In this document: positions 35,073 through 43,620 of the stretch, in pieces
Layout of the letters: each line of letters starts with the position of its first letter
Position numbering within the stretch: position 1 is the stretch's first letter
Source: Acidimicrobiia bacterium
GTDB lineage: Bacteria; Actinomycetota; Acidimicrobiia; Spongiisociales; ZC4RG35
Direction of reading: 5' to 3'
Assembly (NCBI GenBank): GCA_035762545.1
Contig: DASTOM010000024.1
Span: 81,559 to 145,558 of the forward strand
Length of the DNA stretch: 64,000 nucleotides
Made by a program: the position numbers and the translations under genes
The notes under the pieces: generated by a model
Told to the model about the DNA's origin: nothing
What the model saw: the letters and a program-made list of their open reading frames with translations, nothing else
The model's database searches: none

Positions 35073-35960
35073 ATGTCAGCTGTCTCCGTCCACGCCCTAA
35101 CCAAGTCCTATGGCCCACTGAAAGCTGTCAACGGAATCGACCTCGAGATCGCCGTTGGCGAAGTGGTGGCGATCCTGGGGCCGAACGGCGCAGGCAAGAC
35201 CACCACGGTCGAGATGATCGAGGGATTCCGTCGACCGGATTCAGGGACCATCAGTGTGCTCGGTCACGACCCGTCGGATCGCCCGGCCGAACTTCTCGAC
35301 CGGATCGGCATCGTGCTCCAGGAAGGCGGTATCGAGGAGGATCTCACCGTTAGGGAGGCGATCGAGGCGCAGCGACGCCCTTACGCCGAGCCGATGTCAG
35401 CCGATGAGGCCATCGAGACAGTCGACCTCGTCGAAAAGGCCGACGAGCGCATCAAGGGTCTCTCAGGAGGTCAGCGACGGCGACTCGACCTGGCACTCGG
35501 GATCGTGGGCAACCCCGACCTCTTGTTCCTCGATGAGCCAACCACAGGATTCGACCCGGCGGCCCGGCGCCGGTCCTGGGAAGCGATTCGGCAGCTTGCG
35601 TCGTCGGGAACGACGGTGGTACTCACCACCCACTACCTGGAGGAGGCCCAGCAATTGGCCGACCGGGTCGTCGTCATGTCGATGGGTGAGATCGTCGCCA
35701 ACGGATCGCCCGACGACCTCGGAGAGAGAAGGTCCGGTTTGAGCACCATCAGGTTCAGAATCGACCCGAGCCGGGCTGGTGCCCTGGGAGTCGAGCCCGA
35801 CGCCGGCGGGTGGGTTGTGACGGAGACACACGATCCGATCCGGCTGATCAACGAACTGACAGGCAAGGCACTGGCGACGGGGATCGCCATCGAAGACTTC
35901 GAAGTCGGCAAGATCACCCTCGAGGAGGCATACCTCAGGCTGGTGACCCACGATGGGTAG
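35073..35960 (+). CDS. ABC transporter ATP-binding protein (ABC-2/DrrA-like)
   Basis: Walker A GPNGAGKTT, signature LSGGQRRR, Walker B LLFLDEPT. Confidence 0.85.
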   Translation: MSAVSVHALTKSYGPLKAVNGIDLEIAVGEVVAILGPNGAGKTTTVEMIEGFRRPDSGTISVLGHDPSDRPAELLDRIGIVLQEGGIEEDLTVREAIEAQRRPYAEPMSADEAIETVDLVEKADERIKGLSGGQRRRLDLALGIVGNPDLLFLDEPTTGFDPAARRRSWEAIRQLASSGTTVVLTTHYLEEAQQLADRVVVMSMGEIVANGSPDDLGERRSGLSTIRFRIDPSRAGALGVEPDAGGWVVTETHDPIRLINELTGKALATGIAIEDFEVGKITLEEAYLRLVTHDG

Positions 35961-36753
35961 CGGGAGCCTGCTCGTCTCCGAGACGATGCTTCAGACGAAG
36001 CTTTTCTTCCGGTCGGCCGTCGCCGCGTTCTTCACGTTGGTCATGCCACTGATGTTCCTGGTAATGATCAACTTCTTCATCCCGTCCGACGAAGCATCGG
36101 GGTTCTCAGCCGCGCAGTACTTCACCCCTGCGATCGCGGTGTTCGGAATGGTCACGGCGACGTTCACCAACCTCGCGATCAACACATCGATGGCACGCGA
36201 CGGCGGCATACTGAAGCGGGTCGCCGGCACCCCTCTCCCGATGTGGGTTCATCTGGGTGGGCGGATAATGTCCGCCGCCCTCGTGGGTCTGATCTCGGTG
36301 ACACTCATGCTGGCTGTGGGCTGGCTCCTGTTCGACCTCGAGATCCCATGGTCCAGGATGCCCTTGTTCGCCCTGCTGATCCTCGTCGGTGCTGGCACAT
36401 TCTCGGCGTTGGGGCTGGCCGTCGCCGCAGTGACCCCGAACGCACGGGCTGCCCCCGCCATCGCCAACTTCGTGATCCTGCCTCTGGCCTTCATCTCCGG
36501 GATCTTCTTTCCGCTCGACGGATCCCCGGAGTGGCTGCAGACCCTCGCCTCATGGTTGCCACTGGAGCCACTCGTGACGGCTGCCATCGCTCTGTTCGAC
36601 CCAGCGATGCCGGTTGAGTTCCCATGGGCCGCGATCGGAAAGGTGCTCGCCTGGGGCGCGATCGGTCTTGTGATCGCATTGAGGTTCTTCAGCTTCGAGC
36701 CGGCGGGGACGAAGCCACGTGCTGCCGAGGTGTCAGCTGCCTACGGAGATTGA
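35953..36753 (+). CDS. ABC-2 type transporter permease
   Basis: 6-TM ABC-2 membrane layout. Overlaps the upstream ATPase stop by 8 nt. Confidence 0.75.
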   Translation: MGSGSLLVSETMLQTKLFFRSAVAAFFTLVMPLMFLVMINFFIPSDEASGFSAAQYFTPAIAVFGMVTATFTNLAINTSMARDGGILKRVAGTPLPMWVHLGGRIMSAALVGLISVTLMLAVGWLLFDLEIPWSRMPLFALLILVGAGTFSALGLAVAAVTPNARAAPAIANFVILPLAFISGIFFPLDGSPEWLQTLASWLPLEPLVTAAIALFDPAMPVEFPWAAIGKVLAWGAIGLVIALRFFSFEPAGTKPRAAEVSAAYGD

Positions 36754-38193
36754 GACGTAGGCGCACTCCTCGCAGACGTATCTGGTGATACCGATGCCTC
36801 CAGGAGCCTCGACGAACTGATGGACGTGGTCTTTGGAACCGCCACGGAACGCGGCCTTTACCGCGCCCATGAGGCCACCCTTGTCTTTGGCATCGGCGAG
36901 CACGGGTTGCGGGGTGGGCGACACACTCGGGGCACCGTCCTCTAGATCGTTGAGATCCACGACCCGTGGCTCAGCTGCCGCCGCGGCAGCCTCCCGCTCC
37001 GCCACCTCCCGCCGTTCGGCCTCCTCCTCCTGGCGCCGCGCATGTTCCTCCGCCTCGATTCGCGCCTCCTCAGTGGCGCGGGCCTCGGCCTCGCGCTGCG
37101 CCTGCTCCTCGGCCGCGATCCGCGCCTCGTCAGCCGCCGCTCTCTCGGCCTCGCGCTGCGCCCGCTCCTCCGCCGCGATGCGAGCCTCTTCAGCGGCACG
37201 GGCCTCTGCTTCGGCCTGCGCCTCCTTCTCAGCAGCGATGCGCTTCTCTTCGGCGGCGCGGGCCTCAGCCTCGATCCGGGCCTCCTCAGCGGCCCTCTCC
37301 TCGGCTGCCCTTCGGGCCTCTTCCTCGGCGGCTATGCGGGCTTCTTCAGCAGCACGCTGTTGCGCCGCCCGCTCGGCCGCCTCCAACTGGGCGGCTCTCT
37401 GCTCGGTGCGCTCCCGTTCCAACGCAGCCTGCTCGGCAGCCAGTCCCGCGGCCTCGGTCTGGCGTCGCAACTCCTCTCGCTCGGCCTCGAGTCGCTGCAT
37501 CTCCAGGCGATAAGCCTCGAGGAGGTTGGCCTCCCGCTGCTCAGCGGCCTGGCGTTCCTTTTCCAGCTGAGCTCGCTCCTCGGCGAGTCGACGTCTCTCT
37601 TCCTCGATCTCGGGACTGAAGACGGGCTCGGGTGCGGAAACCGATTCGCCCGGCGCGGGTGCGGCCTCGACCGGAGACACCGCACCGACTACCGGGATCG
37701 ACGCATCGGTGTCTCTCCGGTCCCAATCGGTCTCGAAGTGCTCGGCCTCAACTGAAGCGGCTTGGCTGGCGGTGCCAGGCATGGAGGTCTCACCGGCAAT
37801 GGCCCGTGGCCCGGTGGACTCGAGATTGGACTCCATGGCGTGCCGCAGGTCCTCGATTCGGGAGGGGATGAGACCTTTGCGGGACTTGCGAACCGCGATC
37901 GAGCGGGACCCGGGCCGTCGCGACTTGATCTTCGCCCACGTCTCGGCCATGTGCTCCACACCCCGGTAGGCGAAGTCGATCGGATCGGCCGCCACGAAGG
38001 TGACCTCGGTGCCGTCGAGGTCCACGAGGAAGGCGCTCGAAACCAGACGCTTGGCGTGGACGTCATAGAGAGACCAACGCCCCAGGGACTCGCCATCGAC
38101 CACGATCTCGGCCTGGTCCTCGTCCACCACGAACTGAACCGGCACGCCGGGATGATCCAACTCGGGGAACTTCAGTTCACCGTTGAATTTCAC
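36733..38193 (-). CDS. Coiled-coil protein with Ala/Glu/Arg-rich tandem repeats and conserved terminal domains
   Basis: N-terminal globular domain of about 100 aa, a central region of about 230 aa made of AAEEARIAAEE.RA.REAE-type repeats encoded by imperfect 63-bp DNA repeats, and a C-terminal Cys/His cluster HVHQF...YVCEECAYV. Confidence 0.5.
   Translation of the reverse strand: MKFNGELKFPELDHPGVPVQFVVDEDQAEIVVDGESLGRWSLYDVHAKRLVSSAFLVDLDGTEVTFVAADPIDFAYRGVEHMAETWAKIKSRRPGSRSIAVRKSRKGLIPSRIEDLRHAMESNLESTGPRAIAGETSMPGTASQAASVEAEHFETDWDRRDTDASIPVVGAVSPVEAAPAPGESVSAPEPVFSPEIEEERRRLAEERAQLEKERQAAEQREANLLEAYRLEMQRLEAEREELRRQTEAAGLAAEQAALERERTEQRAAQLEAAERAAQQRAAEEARIAAEEEARRAAEERAAEEARIEAEARAAEEKRIAAEKEAQAEAEARAAEEARIAAEERAQREAERAAADEARIAAEEQAQREAEARATEEARIEAEEHARRQEEEAERREVAEREAAAAAAEPRVVDLNDLEDGAPSVSPTPQPVLADAKDKGGLMGAVKAAFRGGSKDHVHQFVEAPGGIGITRYVCEECAYVSISVGS
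37000..37560 (-). repeat. In-frame imperfect tandem DNA repeats (about 63 bp unit, gcctcggcctcgcgctgcgcc.gctcctc.gccgcgat.cg.gcctc.tcagc.gc) encoding the coiled-coil repeats
   Basis: Repeated units are visible at 37075..37137, 37138..37200 and 37201..37263, with further degenerate copies onward. Confidence 0.6.
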
Positions 38194-38273
38194 TCAGAGA
38201 CCTCTAATAGGGGCGGAGGCGGTGGAATTGACGCCACTAAAGATCCCACCGGATCACGAAATGTCAAGCCACA

Positions 38274-41093
38274 TCAGACGTAGGCGTCGAGAGGCGGGCA
38301 GGCACACACCAGGTTGCGATCTCCACCGACCCCGTCGACCCGACCCACCGGGGGCCAGTACTTGTCGATCCGAAGGCTGTCGACGGGATAGGCCGCCAGC
38401 TCTCGCCCATAAGGATGCTCCCACGCGTCTGCGGTCACGTCCTCCGCCGTGTGTGGTGCGTTGACCAGTGGATTGTCGTCACGAGGCCAGTCACCCGCCC
38501 CGATCCTGTCCGCCTCGGCCCGGATGGCGATCATCGCGTCGCAGAACCGATCGATCTCCTCGAGGCTCTCCGACTCGGTCGGCTCGATCATCAGCGTGTT
38601 GGCGACGGGGAACGCAAGAGTCGGGGCGTGGAACCCGTAATCAGCGAGACGTTTGGCAATGTCCTCTGCAGTGACGCCACTGCTCTTGGTCACGGTGCGG
38701 ACATCGACGATGCACTCATGGGCCACCCGGCCGTGGGAGCCGGTGTAGAGAACCGGGAAATGGGGGTCGAGACGTCTGGCGATGTAGTTGGCGGAGAGGA
38801 TCGCGACCCTGGTCGCCTTCTTCAATCCGTCCGGTCCCATCAGCCGGATGTAGGCGTACGGGATCGGGAGAATCCCTGCCGAACCGAACGGAGCACCAGA
38901 TATCGCACCGATGCCCGAGGCAGGCCCGGCCTCGTCGAGAAGAGGATGATTGGGAAGGAACGGAACGAGGTGCTCCTTGACCCCCACCGGACCGACACCC
39001 GGCCCACCCCCGCCGTGGGGGATCGTGAACGTCTTGTGCAGGTTCAGATGGCCTACGTCCGCCCCGAAATCGGCCGGGCGGGCGAGACCTACGAGAGCGT
39101 TGAGATTCGCTCCATCCACGTAGACCTGGCCACCGTGGTGATGGACGATCTCGGTGACTTCCTTGATGCGCTCCTCGAACACGCCGTGAGTCGACGGGTA
39201 GGTCACCATCAACGCAGCGAGATCCGCTTCGTGCTCGGTGGCCTTGGCCTCGAGGTCGGCCACATCGATGTTGCCCGAAGCATCGGAGGCGACGACCACC
39301 ACCCTCATCCCGGCCATCACTGCAGAGGCGGCATTGGTGCCGTGGGCCGACGCAGGGATGAGACAGACGTCCCGGTTCTCGTCTCCCTGCGACCGGTGAT
39401 AGGCAGCGATCGCCAGTAGTCCGGCAAACTCACCCTGGGACCCGGCGTTGGGCTGGAGAGAGACCGCGGCGTAGCCCGTGATGCTGGCCAGATAGCTCTC
39501 GAGCTCGCCGATCAGCTCCAGGTATCCCCTCGCCTGATCCACGGGGGCGTACGGATGGATCCCGGAGAAACCCGGCCAGGTGATCGGAATCATCTCGGTG
39601 GTGGCGTTCAGCTTCATCGTGCAAGAGCCGAGCGGGATCATCGTCCGGTCGAGGGCGAGATCCCGGTCGGCGAGTCGCCGCAGATAGCGGAGCATCTCGT
39701 GCTCCGACTGATAACGATGGAACACCGGGTGGGTCAGGTAGCCCGACCTTCTGGTTAGGCCCTCAGACAGGGCGCCGACGGCCTCGACCCTTGCCACGCC
39801 GATGACCTCGAGGAGACGCTCCACGAGTTCGTCATCGCTTCTCTCGTCGAGGGCGATACGAAAGCGGTCGGTGTCGACATGCCCCAGGTTGATGCCAGCG
39901 TCCCGTGCTGCCTCGACGATCTCGACCGCACGGCCCGGGGCATTCACTGTGATGGTGTCGAACCAATGTGCGTTGTCGACGACGAAGCCCCCGGCCTGCA
40001 GCGAGGCGGCGAGGACAGAGACCAGGCGGTTGCATTCCTCCGCGATCGCACGCAGCCCTTCGGGACCATGCCACGACGCGTAGAAGGCCGCCATCACCGC
40101 GAGAAGCACCTGCGCGGTGCAGACGTTGGAGGTCGCCTTCTCGCGTCGGATGTGTTGCTCGCGTGTCTGAAGCGCGAGTCGATATGCCATGCGACCCGCT
40201 CGATCCTTGGACACGCCGACGAGTCGTCCCGGCAAAGCCCTGACATGCTCCTCACGGGTGGCGATGAAACCCGCGTGCGGGCCGCCGTAACCGAGGGGAA
40301 CGCCAAAACGCTGAGCCGACCCGACGGCGATGTCGGCTCCCCACTCCCCCGGCGGTGTCAGCAGAGTCAGGGCGAGGAGGTCTGTCGCCACGACGACCAG
40401 TGCACCCGCCCCCGCGAACTTCGCTGTGATCGCCGAGAAATCCCGCACTGCCCCCGAAGACCCCGGATAGTGCAACAGGACACCGAAGGCCAGCGCCGGG
40501 TCGGAATCGTCTCCGAGCTCGCGAACCTCGACACCGACGGCAGCGGCCCGGGTCAGGATCACCGACTTGGTCGCCGGATGAGTGTCGGGATCCAGGTAGA
40601 AGACCGACCGGTCCCCCCTGAACAGCCGCCGCGCCATGGCCATCGCCTCGGCTGCCGCCGTCGGCTCGTCCAGCAGCGAGGCATTGGCGATCTCGAGGCC
40701 GGTGAGGTCGGAGACCATCGTTTGGAAGTTGAGGAGAGCCTCGAGTCGGCCCTGGGAGATCTCGGGTTGGTAGGAGGTGTAAGCCGTGTACCAGGCCGGG
40801 TTCTCCAGGACGTTCCTCTGGATCACCGGAGGAACGATCGTGTCGTGGTACCCGAGTCCGATCAGCGACCGCACCAGCGAGTTCGCGCCGGCCAATTGGC
40901 GGAGTCGCTCGGTTACCTCCACCTCTGTCATGGCGGAGGGCAGCTGGAGATCCGTGTCGAGGATCGAAGCGGGGACGGTCTCTTCGATCAGGTCGTCGAG
41001 TGACGCCACGCCGACTGTGGCCAGCATCTTGTCGATGTCGGCAGAAGAGGGGCCGATGTGGCGGTCGGAGAATCGGTCGAATGGGCTCGGCAT
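38274..41093 (-). CDS. gcvP: Glycine dehydrogenase (decarboxylating), single-chain P-protein
   Basis: About 940-aa GcvP with N-terminus [15 protein letters not shown] and PLP-lysine region. GGAGGA Shine-Dalgarno 6 nt upstream of ATG 41093. The 70-aa N-terminal extension in the ORF track is rejected. Confidence 0.9.
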
Positions 41094-41301: not shown

Positions 41302-41306
41302 ACAAT

Positions 41307-41394
41307 GATGATGAAAGGGGGACGACCCCCTCAAACCCCCGCGCCTAAGACAAGAGATGATGAAGGGGGGACGACCCCCTCAAACCCCCGCACC
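41307..41394 (-). repeat. Two copies of a 39-bp direct repeat (gatgatgaaRgggggacgaccccctcaaacccccgcRcc), each containing a GGGGG-TCGT-CCCCC hairpin
   Basis: Copy A is 41307..41345 and copy B is 41356..41394. Copy B abuts the antiporter stop codon. On the minus strand each reads as a GC hairpin followed by TTTCATCAT, consistent with high-GC intrinsic terminators. Confidence 0.5.
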
Positions 41395-43620
41395 TCAGTG
41401 GGTCGGTGTGTTGGGGGTGCCGCTCGGGGGGAGACTCACCACCGCCACCGGCAGCTCGGACTGGGCGAGCATGTACGAGACCCGGTGCCCGTAGAAGGGC
41501 CGATTGGTGAGGGACCTGGTACTGGCACCAAGTACCAGTAGGTCGAAGGCGCCGGAGTTCCCGAATGCCACGATCTCCTCTTCGGCATTGGGCGACACTC
41601 TCACGCCCGTCTCCACCGAAACGCCGAGCCGGTCACCGAATGCAGCGGCGGCTCGCACCATCTCCTGGCCTGCCGCCAGGCTGTCCTGGACGGCAGCGTC
41701 CTCGAGAATCACCCCCTGGCCCTCCGGACGATTGACGACGTGGAGTGCGAATGTACGACCGTCTGCCGCTTTGGCCAGCGAATAGGCGAACTCCTCCGCG
41801 GCGCGGGTCGACCGGGATGCGGCGACCGGCACCAGTATCCGCCTCGGCAGACCTTCGCTCGCCTGCCGCCCTCGAGGCATCCGCACCACTATCGACGGAA
41901 CCTCGATCAAGGCCAGAACCCTGTCGATGACGCTGCTGAACGTCCCCTCACCGGTCTCGGTGGCACCCAGGACCACGAGGTCATAGCCGAGGGAGCTCTC
42001 TTTTGCGATCGCCGATGCCGGATCGCGGGCGAGACGATGAACCGTCCGTGCCGCGGGGAGCTCGGCAAGCACGTCGGATGGATCTCCGGGCTCGCCCTCG
42101 ACACGCCGAGCCAATCGCCTGAACAGACCGGGCTTGGCGAGGTCGACCACCAGAACTGTGATCTCGGCATCGGGAAAGACGGCGTTGACCAGCTGTGCGG
42201 CGTAGAGACTGTTGTCCCCACCGCGGGTCGGTAAGAGGATGCGCCGCGATCGCAGGATCTCGCTCGACTCCCTGACTTCCTCCTGGTCCAATCGCTCAGC
42301 CTCCTCCTGGGGGATGTCCCAACCCCTGACGACGAGCTTGAGCAGTTGGGGCGCCACGATCGAGGTGACGATGGCAGCGAGGACCATCACGGTGTAACCG
42401 GTCTCGCTGACGACACCCAGGTTGAGACCGATTATGGCAACCACCACACCCATGGCACCGAGAGCAGAGAGACCCGAGCCCAGTGCCAGGGCCTCCCTGC
42501 CCCGGACCCCGGCGAAGAATCCTCCGATCACCGTCCCGAGGATCTTGGCGACGATGGCGACCACTATCAGCACCACCGTCCACATGATGACTTCGGTCGT
42601 GTCTAGGAGGCCCACGTCGACACGGAGACCGGAGAACGCGAAGAAGACCGGCGCCAGAAAGGCGGCCGTCACCGTCTCCAGGACCGATCGGACCTGGGGA
42701 AGCTGGTGACGAAGGCCGGCCACGAGGATCCCGACGATGTACGCCCCCAGAATCGCCTCGATGTGGAGGGCCTGGGTGATGGCGCCGCCGATGAGCGCAG
42801 CGACGATCGTGATCGACAGGGCGGCAGTGACCGAGGACCCGCTGGCCATGACGTATCTGAACAGCCGATCGACCAACCAGCGGAAGACCGTGAAGGAGAG
42901 CAGGAGGAAGAGGAGCAGGCCACCGAAGGAGATACCGAGCCTGTCGGGCCGGAATCCATCGAGGGCGATCCCGGAGAGAGCGGCGAGGACCAGCCAACCG
43001 ACGGCGTCCATGGTCATCCCGGCGGCCAGGGTCACCTGGCCGAAGTTGCGACGCAGGTACCCCATGTCCTGGAGGATCTTGGCCACGACCGGGAGCGCGG
43101 AGACCGAGAGGGCAAGGGCGAGGAAGCCGGCGAAGACGGCGCGCTCCACCCCCGATCCGTCGGGCCCCGGTCCGATGAACGACTCCGGGACCAGGAAGGC
43201 GAGGGACGCCGCCGCGGCCAGAGGTAGGAGGAGGGCGCCGGCCGAAACGGAGAGAGCGGCGTTACGGAACCTGGCGATGATCCCGAGATCGGTCTCGAAC
43301 CCGATCACCACCAGGAGCATGATCACGCCTAGCCAGGAGATGCCGAAGACTACGGACGTCACGGTGGGCTCCCCGAACACCCAGTTGAATGTCTCCGGCG
43401 CCACCCGACCGAACAGGGTCGGTCCCAGGACGACACCGGCGAGGAGCTCACCGACGACGGCGGGCTGGCCGACACTCTTCATCAACCATCCGAAGATGCG
43501 GGCAACTCCGACGAGGAGAGCCAACTGCACGAGGAAGACGAGGACTTCGTGTTCGCTCAGCGGCGCTGCCGAGCCGCCCTCGGCAGCGAGAAAGAAGACC
43601 ACGAGATCAAAACTAGCCAC
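41395..43620 (-). CDS. Cation/proton antiporter (CPA family) fused to tandem universal stress protein (UspA) domains
   Basis: About 400-aa 12-TM Na+/H+-exchanger-like N-terminus followed by two UspA-like alpha/beta domains (ILLPTRGG..., RILVPVAASRS...). Confidence 0.75.
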   Translation of the reverse strand: MASFDLVVFFLAAEGGSAAPLSEHEVLVFLVQLALLVGVARIFGWLMKSVGQPAVVGELLAGVVLGPTLFGRVAPETFNWVFGEPTVTSVVFGISWLGVIMLLVVIGFETDLGIIARFRNAALSVSAGALLLPLAAAASLAFLVPESFIGPGPDGSGVERAVFAGFLALALSVSALPVVAKILQDMGYLRRNFGQVTLAAGMTMDAVGWLVLAALSGIALDGFRPDRLGISFGGLLLFLLLSFTVFRWLVDRLFRYVMASGSSVTAALSITIVAALIGGAITQALHIEAILGAYIVGILVAGLRHQLPQVRSVLETVTAAFLAPVFFAFSGLRVDVGLLDTTEVIMWTVVLIVVAIVAKILGTVIGGFFAGVRGREALALGSGLSALGAMGVVVAIIGLNLGVVSETGYTVMVLAAIVTSIVAPQLLKLVVRGWDIPQEEAERLDQEEVRESSEILRSRRILLPTRGGDNSLYAAQLVNAVFPDAEITVLVVDLAKPGLFRRLARRVEGEPGDPSDVLAELPAARTVHRLARDPASAIAKESSLGYDLVVLGATETGEGTFSSVIDRVLALIEVPSIVVRMPRGRQASEGLPRRILVPVAASRSTRAAEEFAYSLAKAADGRTFALHVVNRPEGQGVILEDAAVQDSLAAGQEMVRAAAAFGDRLGVSVETGVRVSPNAEEEIVAFGNSGAFDLLVLGASTRSLTNRPFYGHRVSYMLAQSELPVAVVSLPPSGTPNTPTH

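Follow-up and report, generated by a model that had tools for sequence, protein, structure and literature searches.

A window of 64,000 nucleotides from an Acidimicrobiia bacterium (contig DASTOM010000024.1 of assembly GCA_035762545.1, positions 81,559 to 145,558) carries on its minus strand, at 36733..38193, a complete open reading frame (ORF) for a protein of 486 amino acids (aa), with a GTG start at 38193 and a stop codon at 36733–36735. We conclude that this gene is real and conserved. On the evidence of sequence searches, its product belongs to a family that has not been described before and is absent from Pfam and NCBIfam. Two conserved end modules, a predicted PH/PTB-like domain at the N-terminus and a small, putatively zinc-binding domain at the C-terminus, are parted in this family by a spacer of changing character. 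What might such a protein do? At about even chances, we favour a cytoplasmic, soluble protein of modular build that acts as an adaptor or tether and whose spacer can evolve. The features of the gene described below all lie on the minus strand and are given in window positions.

The family and its end modules

Is the reading frame a genuine gene? An initial annotation of this DNA, made from the letters alone, had placed the ORF here, and both the GTG start and a Shine–Dalgarno-like AGAGG read from the sequence 7 nt upstream of it (38201..38205) bear out that placement. The product corresponds to HEU4320109.1, annotated ‘hypothetical protein [Acidimicrobiia bacterium]’. The annotation's supposition that the ORF is conserved in relatives also holds: among the GTDB species, each represented by one genome, 98 related loci were found, with orthologues in at least 80 species-level genomes. 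Since the same frame is conserved across at least 80 species and a fold is confidently predicted for its product, we reject the explanation that it is a shadow ORF or non-coding. Neither a signal peptide nor a transmembrane segment (maximum 19-residue hydropathy, 1.24) was found in the 486-aa protein, which we read as cytoplasmic and soluble.

An exhaustive profile search of 1.84 billion cluster representatives yielded 229 proteins at E ≤ 1e-3, and both end modules were present in 88 of 170 retrieved proteins. Every member with a named source comes from the Acidimicrobiia, and all named members carry the annotation ‘hypothetical’. Queries made from the first 125 aa and from the last 76 aa both matched fragments from Acidimicrobiia metagenome bins only, many of which end at contig edges or at frameshifts; a third homologue search, with the profile of a distant subgroup, returned only 5 fragments. 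The searches thus define a conserved, class-restricted family in a widespread and almost uncultured bacterial class.

Pfam and NCBIfam gave no meaningful match to the full protein, and no Pfam family appeared at E ≤ 1 bar low complexity; a match to a TRK transporter (E = 0.078) was discarded as a low-complexity artefact. When Pfam was run on the 88 two-module members, neither PH nor bacterial PH (bPH) was found, only low-complexity or coiled-coil matches (PARP, ATG16, MIC19/25) in 1–2 members each and none of them in the window protein. The isolated end modules produced nothing but noise at E ≤ 10.

In the alignment of the 88 sequences, residues G38, W40, R49, F55, F74, A75 and Y76 of the N-terminal domain are invariant. 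The structure discussed here is an AlphaFold2 prediction made with this alignment; it supersedes a single-sequence AlphaFold model in which the N-terminal domain was uninformative (pLDDT 40–50). Residues 1–92 (37918..38193) are predicted, at pLDDT 96–98, to form a seven-stranded antiparallel β-sandwich, one end of which is closed by a C-terminal α-helix (the capping helix, 71–90). Such is the architecture of the PH/PTB superfold, to which we assign the domain on the strength of the model. Its structural neighbours, all of them eukaryotic, are PH/PTB-superfold domains (Bcr PH 5oc7, ASAP1 PH 5c79, Dab2 PTB 6o5o) with less than 16% identity to it. Two N-terminal domains searched in isolation drew no Pfam PH or bPH model at E ≤ 10, and a PDB sequence search with the domain profile returned only chance matches to PDE4, at E > 0.3. 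Bacteria have few domains of the PH/PTB fold, and these are poorly understood.

Phosphoinositide-binding PH domains carry a basic K-Xn-(K/R)-X-R motif in the β1 and β2 strands and the loop between them. The β1–β2 region of the present domain (FPELDHPGVP) lacks that motif; the end of β1, the loop and the start of β2 read KFPELDHPGVPVQF, which is acidic to neutral. The domain is followed by a basic helical extension (residues 93–126; 37816..37917), with predicted helices at 94–104 and 113–126, a net charge of +4, a nearly invariant R97 and a ‘PSR’ motif. The pLDDT of this extension is 97–98 up to residue 120 and drops towards 126.

At the other end of the protein, residues 452–486 (36736..36840) make up a mini-domain, a putative zinc knuckle or ribbon. 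Here H456, H458, G468, R471, C474 and C477 are invariant, both in the 88 sequences and in a 25-sequence alignment (A3), and the family follows the pattern HxHx[FY]-x11-RxxCxxCG[HY]. Short strands are predicted at 460–463, 469–474 and 480–484 (pLDDT 84–91). Because four invariant His and Cys residues thus stand in two pairs on a small β structure, as the ligands of a zinc ribbon or knuckle do, H456, H458, C474 and C477 probably hold a zinc ion. Just before the HxH lies a basic amphipathic segment (residues 438–451, KGGLMGAVKAAFRG; 36841..36882), which conforms to a family pattern G.....R..F.R and has a hydrophobic moment of 0.5–0.64. It is helical in the single-sequence model and of low confidence in the alignment-based one. 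The initial annotation had described the N-terminal domain and the C-terminal Cys/His cluster as non-repetitive and conserved; with this the alignment agrees.

The most distant members (e.g. P0112, P0135, P0163) carry a conserved tail, GEDVYQ.W, beyond the zinc module. They also have an Arg/Lys-rich ..RRLFGRSK.. in place of the amphipathic GLMGAVRAAF stretch, and we take this replacement to be reminiscent of membrane-targeting sequences of the MinD/FtsA type.

Does the C-terminal module resemble any protein of known structure? The best PDB sequence match of its profile is the TFIIH-binding C-terminus of XPA, at an E of 0.18–0.34, which is not significant; a pairwise hhalign comparison of the profile with XPA, picked after the fact, gave a probability of 82%. 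The XPA C-terminus (human ~225–266) and the module have in common HxHx[YF]...RxxCxxCGH at near-equal spacing, with a basic amphipathic stretch before it, whereas organism, context and the remaining protein are unrelated. H242, H244, C261 and C264 of XPA have been called ‘potential Zinc-binding residues’, zinc binding being undetected in XPA, and the H244R substitution weakens TFIIH binding (PMC10089173). We regard the likeness as a lead only, though one that would have the HxH...CxxC end module mirror a disease-relevant, structurally unresolved human motif.

If the module recalls a repair protein, might the family act on nucleic acid? The zinc mini-domain and the basic patches could bind DNA, RNA or a DNA-processing machine, as in a repair or transcription factor, and the acidic spacer could serve as an autoinhibitory mimic. 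Basic patches do lie directly after the PH-like domain and ahead of the HxH, in distant members too, and XPA is after all the best PDB match of the C-terminal profile. However, that match falls short of significance and its hhalign support is post hoc. No helix–turn–helix (HTH) or other known nucleic-acid-binding domain was found by Pfam or NCBIfam, or in the end modules at E ≤ 10. Moreover, XPA's C-terminal part reaches p52 and p8 of TFIIH, that is, it binds protein and not DNA (10.1101/628032). A nucleic-acid-binding function is still a candidate, although we consider it unlikely.

Some database entries related to the end modules call for comment. P0111, a giant NACHT-LRR protein of 4090 aa that came up in the search of cluster representatives, owes its E of 5e-16 against the N-terminal domain profile to five short stretches; since Pfam finds nothing in it but NACHT and LRR repeats, we judge it a probable repeat-driven false positive. 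An apparent short isoform of 134–169 aa (P0001, P0003) was rejected as frameshifted gene calls on error-prone long contigs. The remainder of P0001 (169 aa, locus L001) is found in a different frame, which runs on through a helical region and into the same C-terminal module; gcvP, gpsA and manC of that locus are likewise split. Frameshifts split the orthologue in L001/L003, L043, L045, L046, L048, L059 and L070 (contigs of the contig_NNNN type, MFD isolates), a pattern typical of uncorrected long-read assemblies. Frameshifts in long-read contigs therefore explain the truncated family ‘proteins’ of 134–170 aa found in databases. Two contigs of a single bin (DATDPP01; L038 and L039) each contain gcvP and a copy of the family gene, of 405 and 418 aa, either through duplication or through two strains having been binned together.

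The spacer and its 60-bp repeat

Among members that carry both end modules, total length runs from 335 to 859 aa, and the composition and length of the spacer differ widely. In most of the 88 the middle is rich in Pro, Glu and Ala; in a subset that includes the window protein it is rich in Glu, Ala, Arg and Leu. Residues 196–425 of the window protein consist of 30% Ala, 28% Glu and 16.5% Arg, in accord with the Ala/Glu/Arg-dominated central ~230 aa of the initial annotation. Its proposal of a scaffold or tether of variable length is sustained by the conserved ends and the varying middle, and as a generic description ‘tether or scaffold’ still fits best. That a coiled coil is the defining feature, as it had it, is not supported, for most members have a disordered Pro/Glu/Ala-rich middle.

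How is the middle of the window protein built? It begins with an acidic, Pro-containing segment (residues 127–193; 37615..37815) that composition and a pLDDT below 50 from about residue 136 mark as disordered. Residues 194–391 are then predicted to form one uninterrupted helix, with pLDDT above 90 to about residue 350. At 0.15 nm per residue, these ~198 residues would span ~30 nm. The first part of the helix (residues 194–282; 37348..37614; pLDDT 94–97) contains a conserved core, LAEER..LE.ER...AEQREANLLEAYRLEMQRLEAERE, with Leu, Ile or Tyr at heptad-like spacing (positions 196, 203, 210, 224, 228, 235 and 242). In the Glu/Ala/Arg/Leu-rich subset the consensus of this core of ~50 aa is LAEER..LE.ER...AEQREA.R[IV]EA[FY]R[LI]EM.RLE.ER, and it is kept in at least 12 subfamily members despite differing flanks.

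The second part is of another kind. Residues 283–400 (36994..37347) are rich in Ala, Glu and Arg and are made up of degenerate 20-aa units (AEE.AQREAEARAAEEARIA). From 283 to 391 there is one Ile per 20 aa (287, 307, 319, 339, 359, 379) and a hydropathy period of 4.0; these 109 residues, with 20 K+R and 37 D+E, hold 25 i/i+4 and 19 i/i+3 pairs of opposite charge. Together, one Ile per 20 residues, a period of 4.0 and i/i+4 pairing characterize a single helix like those of the EAAAK or ER/K type, not a coiled coil. Helices of the (EAAAK)n type and those rich in Glu, Arg and Lys (ER/K) are stable as single helices and act as rigid spacers. With 52% charged residues, 35% Ala and no hydrophobic seam along a long predicted helix, the 283–391 segment has the features of such single α-helix domains. 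It differs from classical ER/K helices in having more Ala and less Lys, and the preceding stretch, 196–270, resembles a true coiled coil. We conclude from the model that the 283–400 extension is probably a single, lineage-specific Ala/Glu/Arg helix. Beyond it, residues 392–455 are predicted to be disordered, with low pLDDT. Within this otherwise disordered sequence sits a short linear motif, VVDLNDLE (residues 411–418; 36940..36963), conserved in the close subfamily as [VL][VL]DL.[DE][LFY]E.

A rod of this length invites comparison with filament-forming coiled-coil proteins of the cytoskeleton, such as Scy, FilP, DivIVA or crescentin, and the Ala/Glu/Arg rod might polymerize as theirs do. Scy, FilP and DivIVA likewise offer a long helical rod in a protein of the Actinomycetota, the continuous helix of ~198 residues is predicted at high confidence, and Leu recurs at heptad-like spacing in residues 196–270, inside the conserved core. 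Yet the rod is not family-wide, and the Pro/Glu/Ala-rich middle of most members cannot form a coiled coil. Nor is an a/d core carried along the whole rod: in residues 283–391 the hydropathy period is 4.0, not 3.5, and the 20-aa repeats hold a single Ile each. There is no sequence similarity to Scy, FilP or DivIVA, and the coiled-coil and low-complexity matches in Pfam touch at most 2 of the 88 members each, sparing the window protein. These features contradict a filament, which we think very unlikely. The cytoskeletal, divisome or polar roles that the initial annotation put forward as candidates gain no support here.

We turn to the repeat itself. Tandem Repeats Finder reports a tandem DNA repeat at 37029..37273 with a period of 60 bp, 4.1 copies and 78% matches. 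Autocorrelation peaks at 60 bp in the DNA and at 20 aa in the protein, and neither 63 bp nor 21 aa gives a peak; the period-60 value of 0.535 compares with 0.418 ± 0.010 in 500 codon shuffles (z = 11.3). The 60-bp repeat is real and not a product of chance. Pairwise, the four good units agree at 37–47 of 60 nt (62–78%) and at 12–15 of 20 aa. The initial annotation had instead described near-identical units of 63 bp that made up the whole central region. The period has to be corrected to 60 bp, the units are well short of near-identical, and the array covers only ~80–100 of the 230 aa. The heptad-like character that it gave to the repeats applies to residues 196–270 and not to the repeat part, since 20 aa is not a whole number of heptads, a lone Ile is all that each unit has in large hydrophobic residues and the period is 4.0.

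Could the array be an artefact of assembly? The exact 486-aa protein occurs on contigs from two other sequencing runs (SRR22388175 and SRR14027274), and these match the window with 0 mismatches over 3.2–3.4 kb, array included. The concern that the repeat is an assembly artefact, voiced with the initial annotation, is thereby dispelled.

Does the array, then, change in copy number between strains by slipped-strand mispairing, as a phase- or length-variable contingency locus that tunes the length of the protein on short timescales? In-frame linker repeats are indeed pervasive: tandem repeats occur in the linker of 44 of 54 complete orthologues, with periods from 12 to 150 bp that are all multiples of 3. 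P0034, the closest relative (84% identity across the first 270 aa, the rest being similar), differs by a single 15-aa gap that falls within the array. On the other hand, units of 62–78% identity are too diverged for efficient slippage, the two other sequencing runs gave identical protein and DNA, and the variation that is seen lies between species, not strains. Typical contingency loci also differ from this one, whose product is cytoplasmic, with neither signal peptide nor transmembrane segment. The tested features contradict a contingency locus, and we hold it to be highly improbable. The slipped-strand expansion and contraction proposed in the initial annotation survives in part: duplication and loss shape the linker across the family, whereas the diverged units and identical assemblies speak against an ongoing process in this genome.

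In-frame tandem repeats of so many periods in 44 of 54 orthologues therefore mark the linker as a hotspot of independent in-frame duplication. With a spacer that differs from species to species, the repeats are the least conserved part of the protein. The Ala/Glu/Arg helix of the window protein would stem from an old in-frame tandem duplication of the 60-bp unit.

How the modules might act together

If the protein is an adaptor or tether, how would its parts divide the work? The PH/PTB-fold domain and its basic helical extension would form one binding module, and the basic amphipathic segment with the HxH...CxxC mini-domain a second. The spacer would keep the two apart, its sequence open to change provided that the reading frame stays intact. 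For the majority of relatives it would be an acidic, proline-rich, disordered chain. In the lineage of the window it would be the long helix, of which the first third, the conserved heptad-like core, would probably be a site of dimerization or of binding to a partner. Transcription of the gene would be driven by a conserved promoter-like element of its own, just past gcvP.

Several points weigh against an adaptor or tether. The uniformly ‘hypothetical’ annotation of the named members supplies no partner, ligand or localization in its support. The PH-like assignment is based on a predicted structure at less than 16% identity to any solved domain, and we infer, rather than observe, both zinc binding and the oligomeric state (monomer or dimer). 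Were the end modules in mutual contact, they would make a closed unit, not a tether. Finally, the universal adjacency to gcvP might reflect some specific role in metabolism or regulation, which the adaptor model leaves unexplained.

A bolder version can be framed, in which the protein is an Acidimicrobiia-wide hub that works as a physical ruler. The C-terminal amphipathic segment and zinc knuckle would dock on a membrane or protein machine, and the PH/PTB-like domain would take hold of a peptide or lipid partner; the spacer would set the working distance, and in the C-terminal module the XPA motif would have a genuine bacterial relative. We consider this quite unlikely. If true, it would provide a prokaryotic, experimentally tractable counterpart of a poorly understood XPA docking motif.

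For the adaptor or tether there are precedents. Domain II of TolA, an Ala/Lys/Glu helix, and TonB, with its Glu-Pro/Lys-Pro repeats, are bacterial examples of both types of spacer. In TolA domain II, the Pro-rich region of TonB, ZipA and the FtsZ linkers, conserved ends are combined with a low-complexity spacer that varies in length and sequence between species. In working principle, such tethers and the single α-helix domains are the closest analogues of the protein. Like these tethers, the present family has conserved end modules parted by an Ala/charged helix or an acidic or basic Pro-rich spacer of variable length. Unlike them, it has no transmembrane anchor, is cytoplasmic rather than envelope-spanning and is unrelated in sequence. 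What we have, then, is an undescribed family that combines known folds with a familiar design principle. It offers a clean natural example of spacer evolution, in which the same ends are joined by a disordered acidic chain or by a rigid helix, with in-frame tandem duplications that arose independently in most lineages. Until a partner or phenotype emerges, its practical impact will stay limited.

Gene neighbourhood and promoter-like motif

In every locus with upstream sequence, gcvP immediately precedes the family gene, in the same orientation and with a gap of ~80–115 bp between them; this holds even for distant members at 22–27% identity. What does this adjacency signify? The whole neighbourhood, ychF, gcvP, family gene, manC, cytochrome c, menC and menD, is syntenic across the class, and the order of manC, cytochrome c, menC and menD is as conserved as the position of gcvP. 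Because the entire neighbourhood is syntenic, adjacency to gcvP is weak evidence for function, and general synteny accounts for it at least as well as a functional link.

The family protein might nonetheless regulate, help to assemble or anchor the P-protein of glycine cleavage, and the same-strand order of gcvP and the family gene, kept in distant members too, is what such a link would have in its favour. Opposed to it are the class-wide synteny, which makes the adjacency non-specific, and a conserved promoter-like motif that the gene has to itself. Neither gcvT nor gcvH is adjacent, and no domain points to glycine, lipoyl or PLP chemistry. The link to glycine cleavage stays a candidate, an unlikely one in our estimate.

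The motif in question, TTGACA-N14-GGGAT(C)(T/G)T (38243..38267), is situated between the gcvP stop codon (38274–38276) and the start of the gene. It is visible in an alignment of 23 upstream regions; of 72 loci, 69 have it, and its 14-nt spacer is invariant among them. A simple scan for sigma-70 promoters and terminators did not call it and found nothing. From the sequence pattern we infer that TTGACA-N14-GGGAT(C) serves this gene as a promoter of its own, or as promoter and operator combined. One candidate assignment is the sigma-70 type, with TGG-GATCTT as an extended −10 element; another is suggested by its GGGAT, which recalls the GGGTAT −10 of stress sigma factors of the SigB/SigF type. 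If it is a promoter, transcription would start ~7–10 nt downstream of GGGATCTT, near window position 38230. No terminator-like hairpin was found in 36400–38600. An Rfam search over the whole window gave nothing at the gathering score, and hence no glycine riboswitch upstream of gcvP (41304–41500).

Downstream of the family gene, a pair of genes for an ABC ATPase and an ABC-2 permease (~35100–36753) is present in about one quarter of the orthologous loci (among L005–L082), and the flanking order is kept where the pair is absent. We read it as a cassette inserted between the family gene and manC, incidental to the former. Of the two neighbours singled out by the initial annotation, then, the exporter is incidental, while gcvP is universal. 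The 486-aa gene and the permease gene (35953..36753, plus strand) converge, and their 3′ ends share 21 bp, at 36733–36753. The gcvP ORF as listed (1009 aa, GTG at 41303) probably begins ~70 codons later, at MPSPFDRF.

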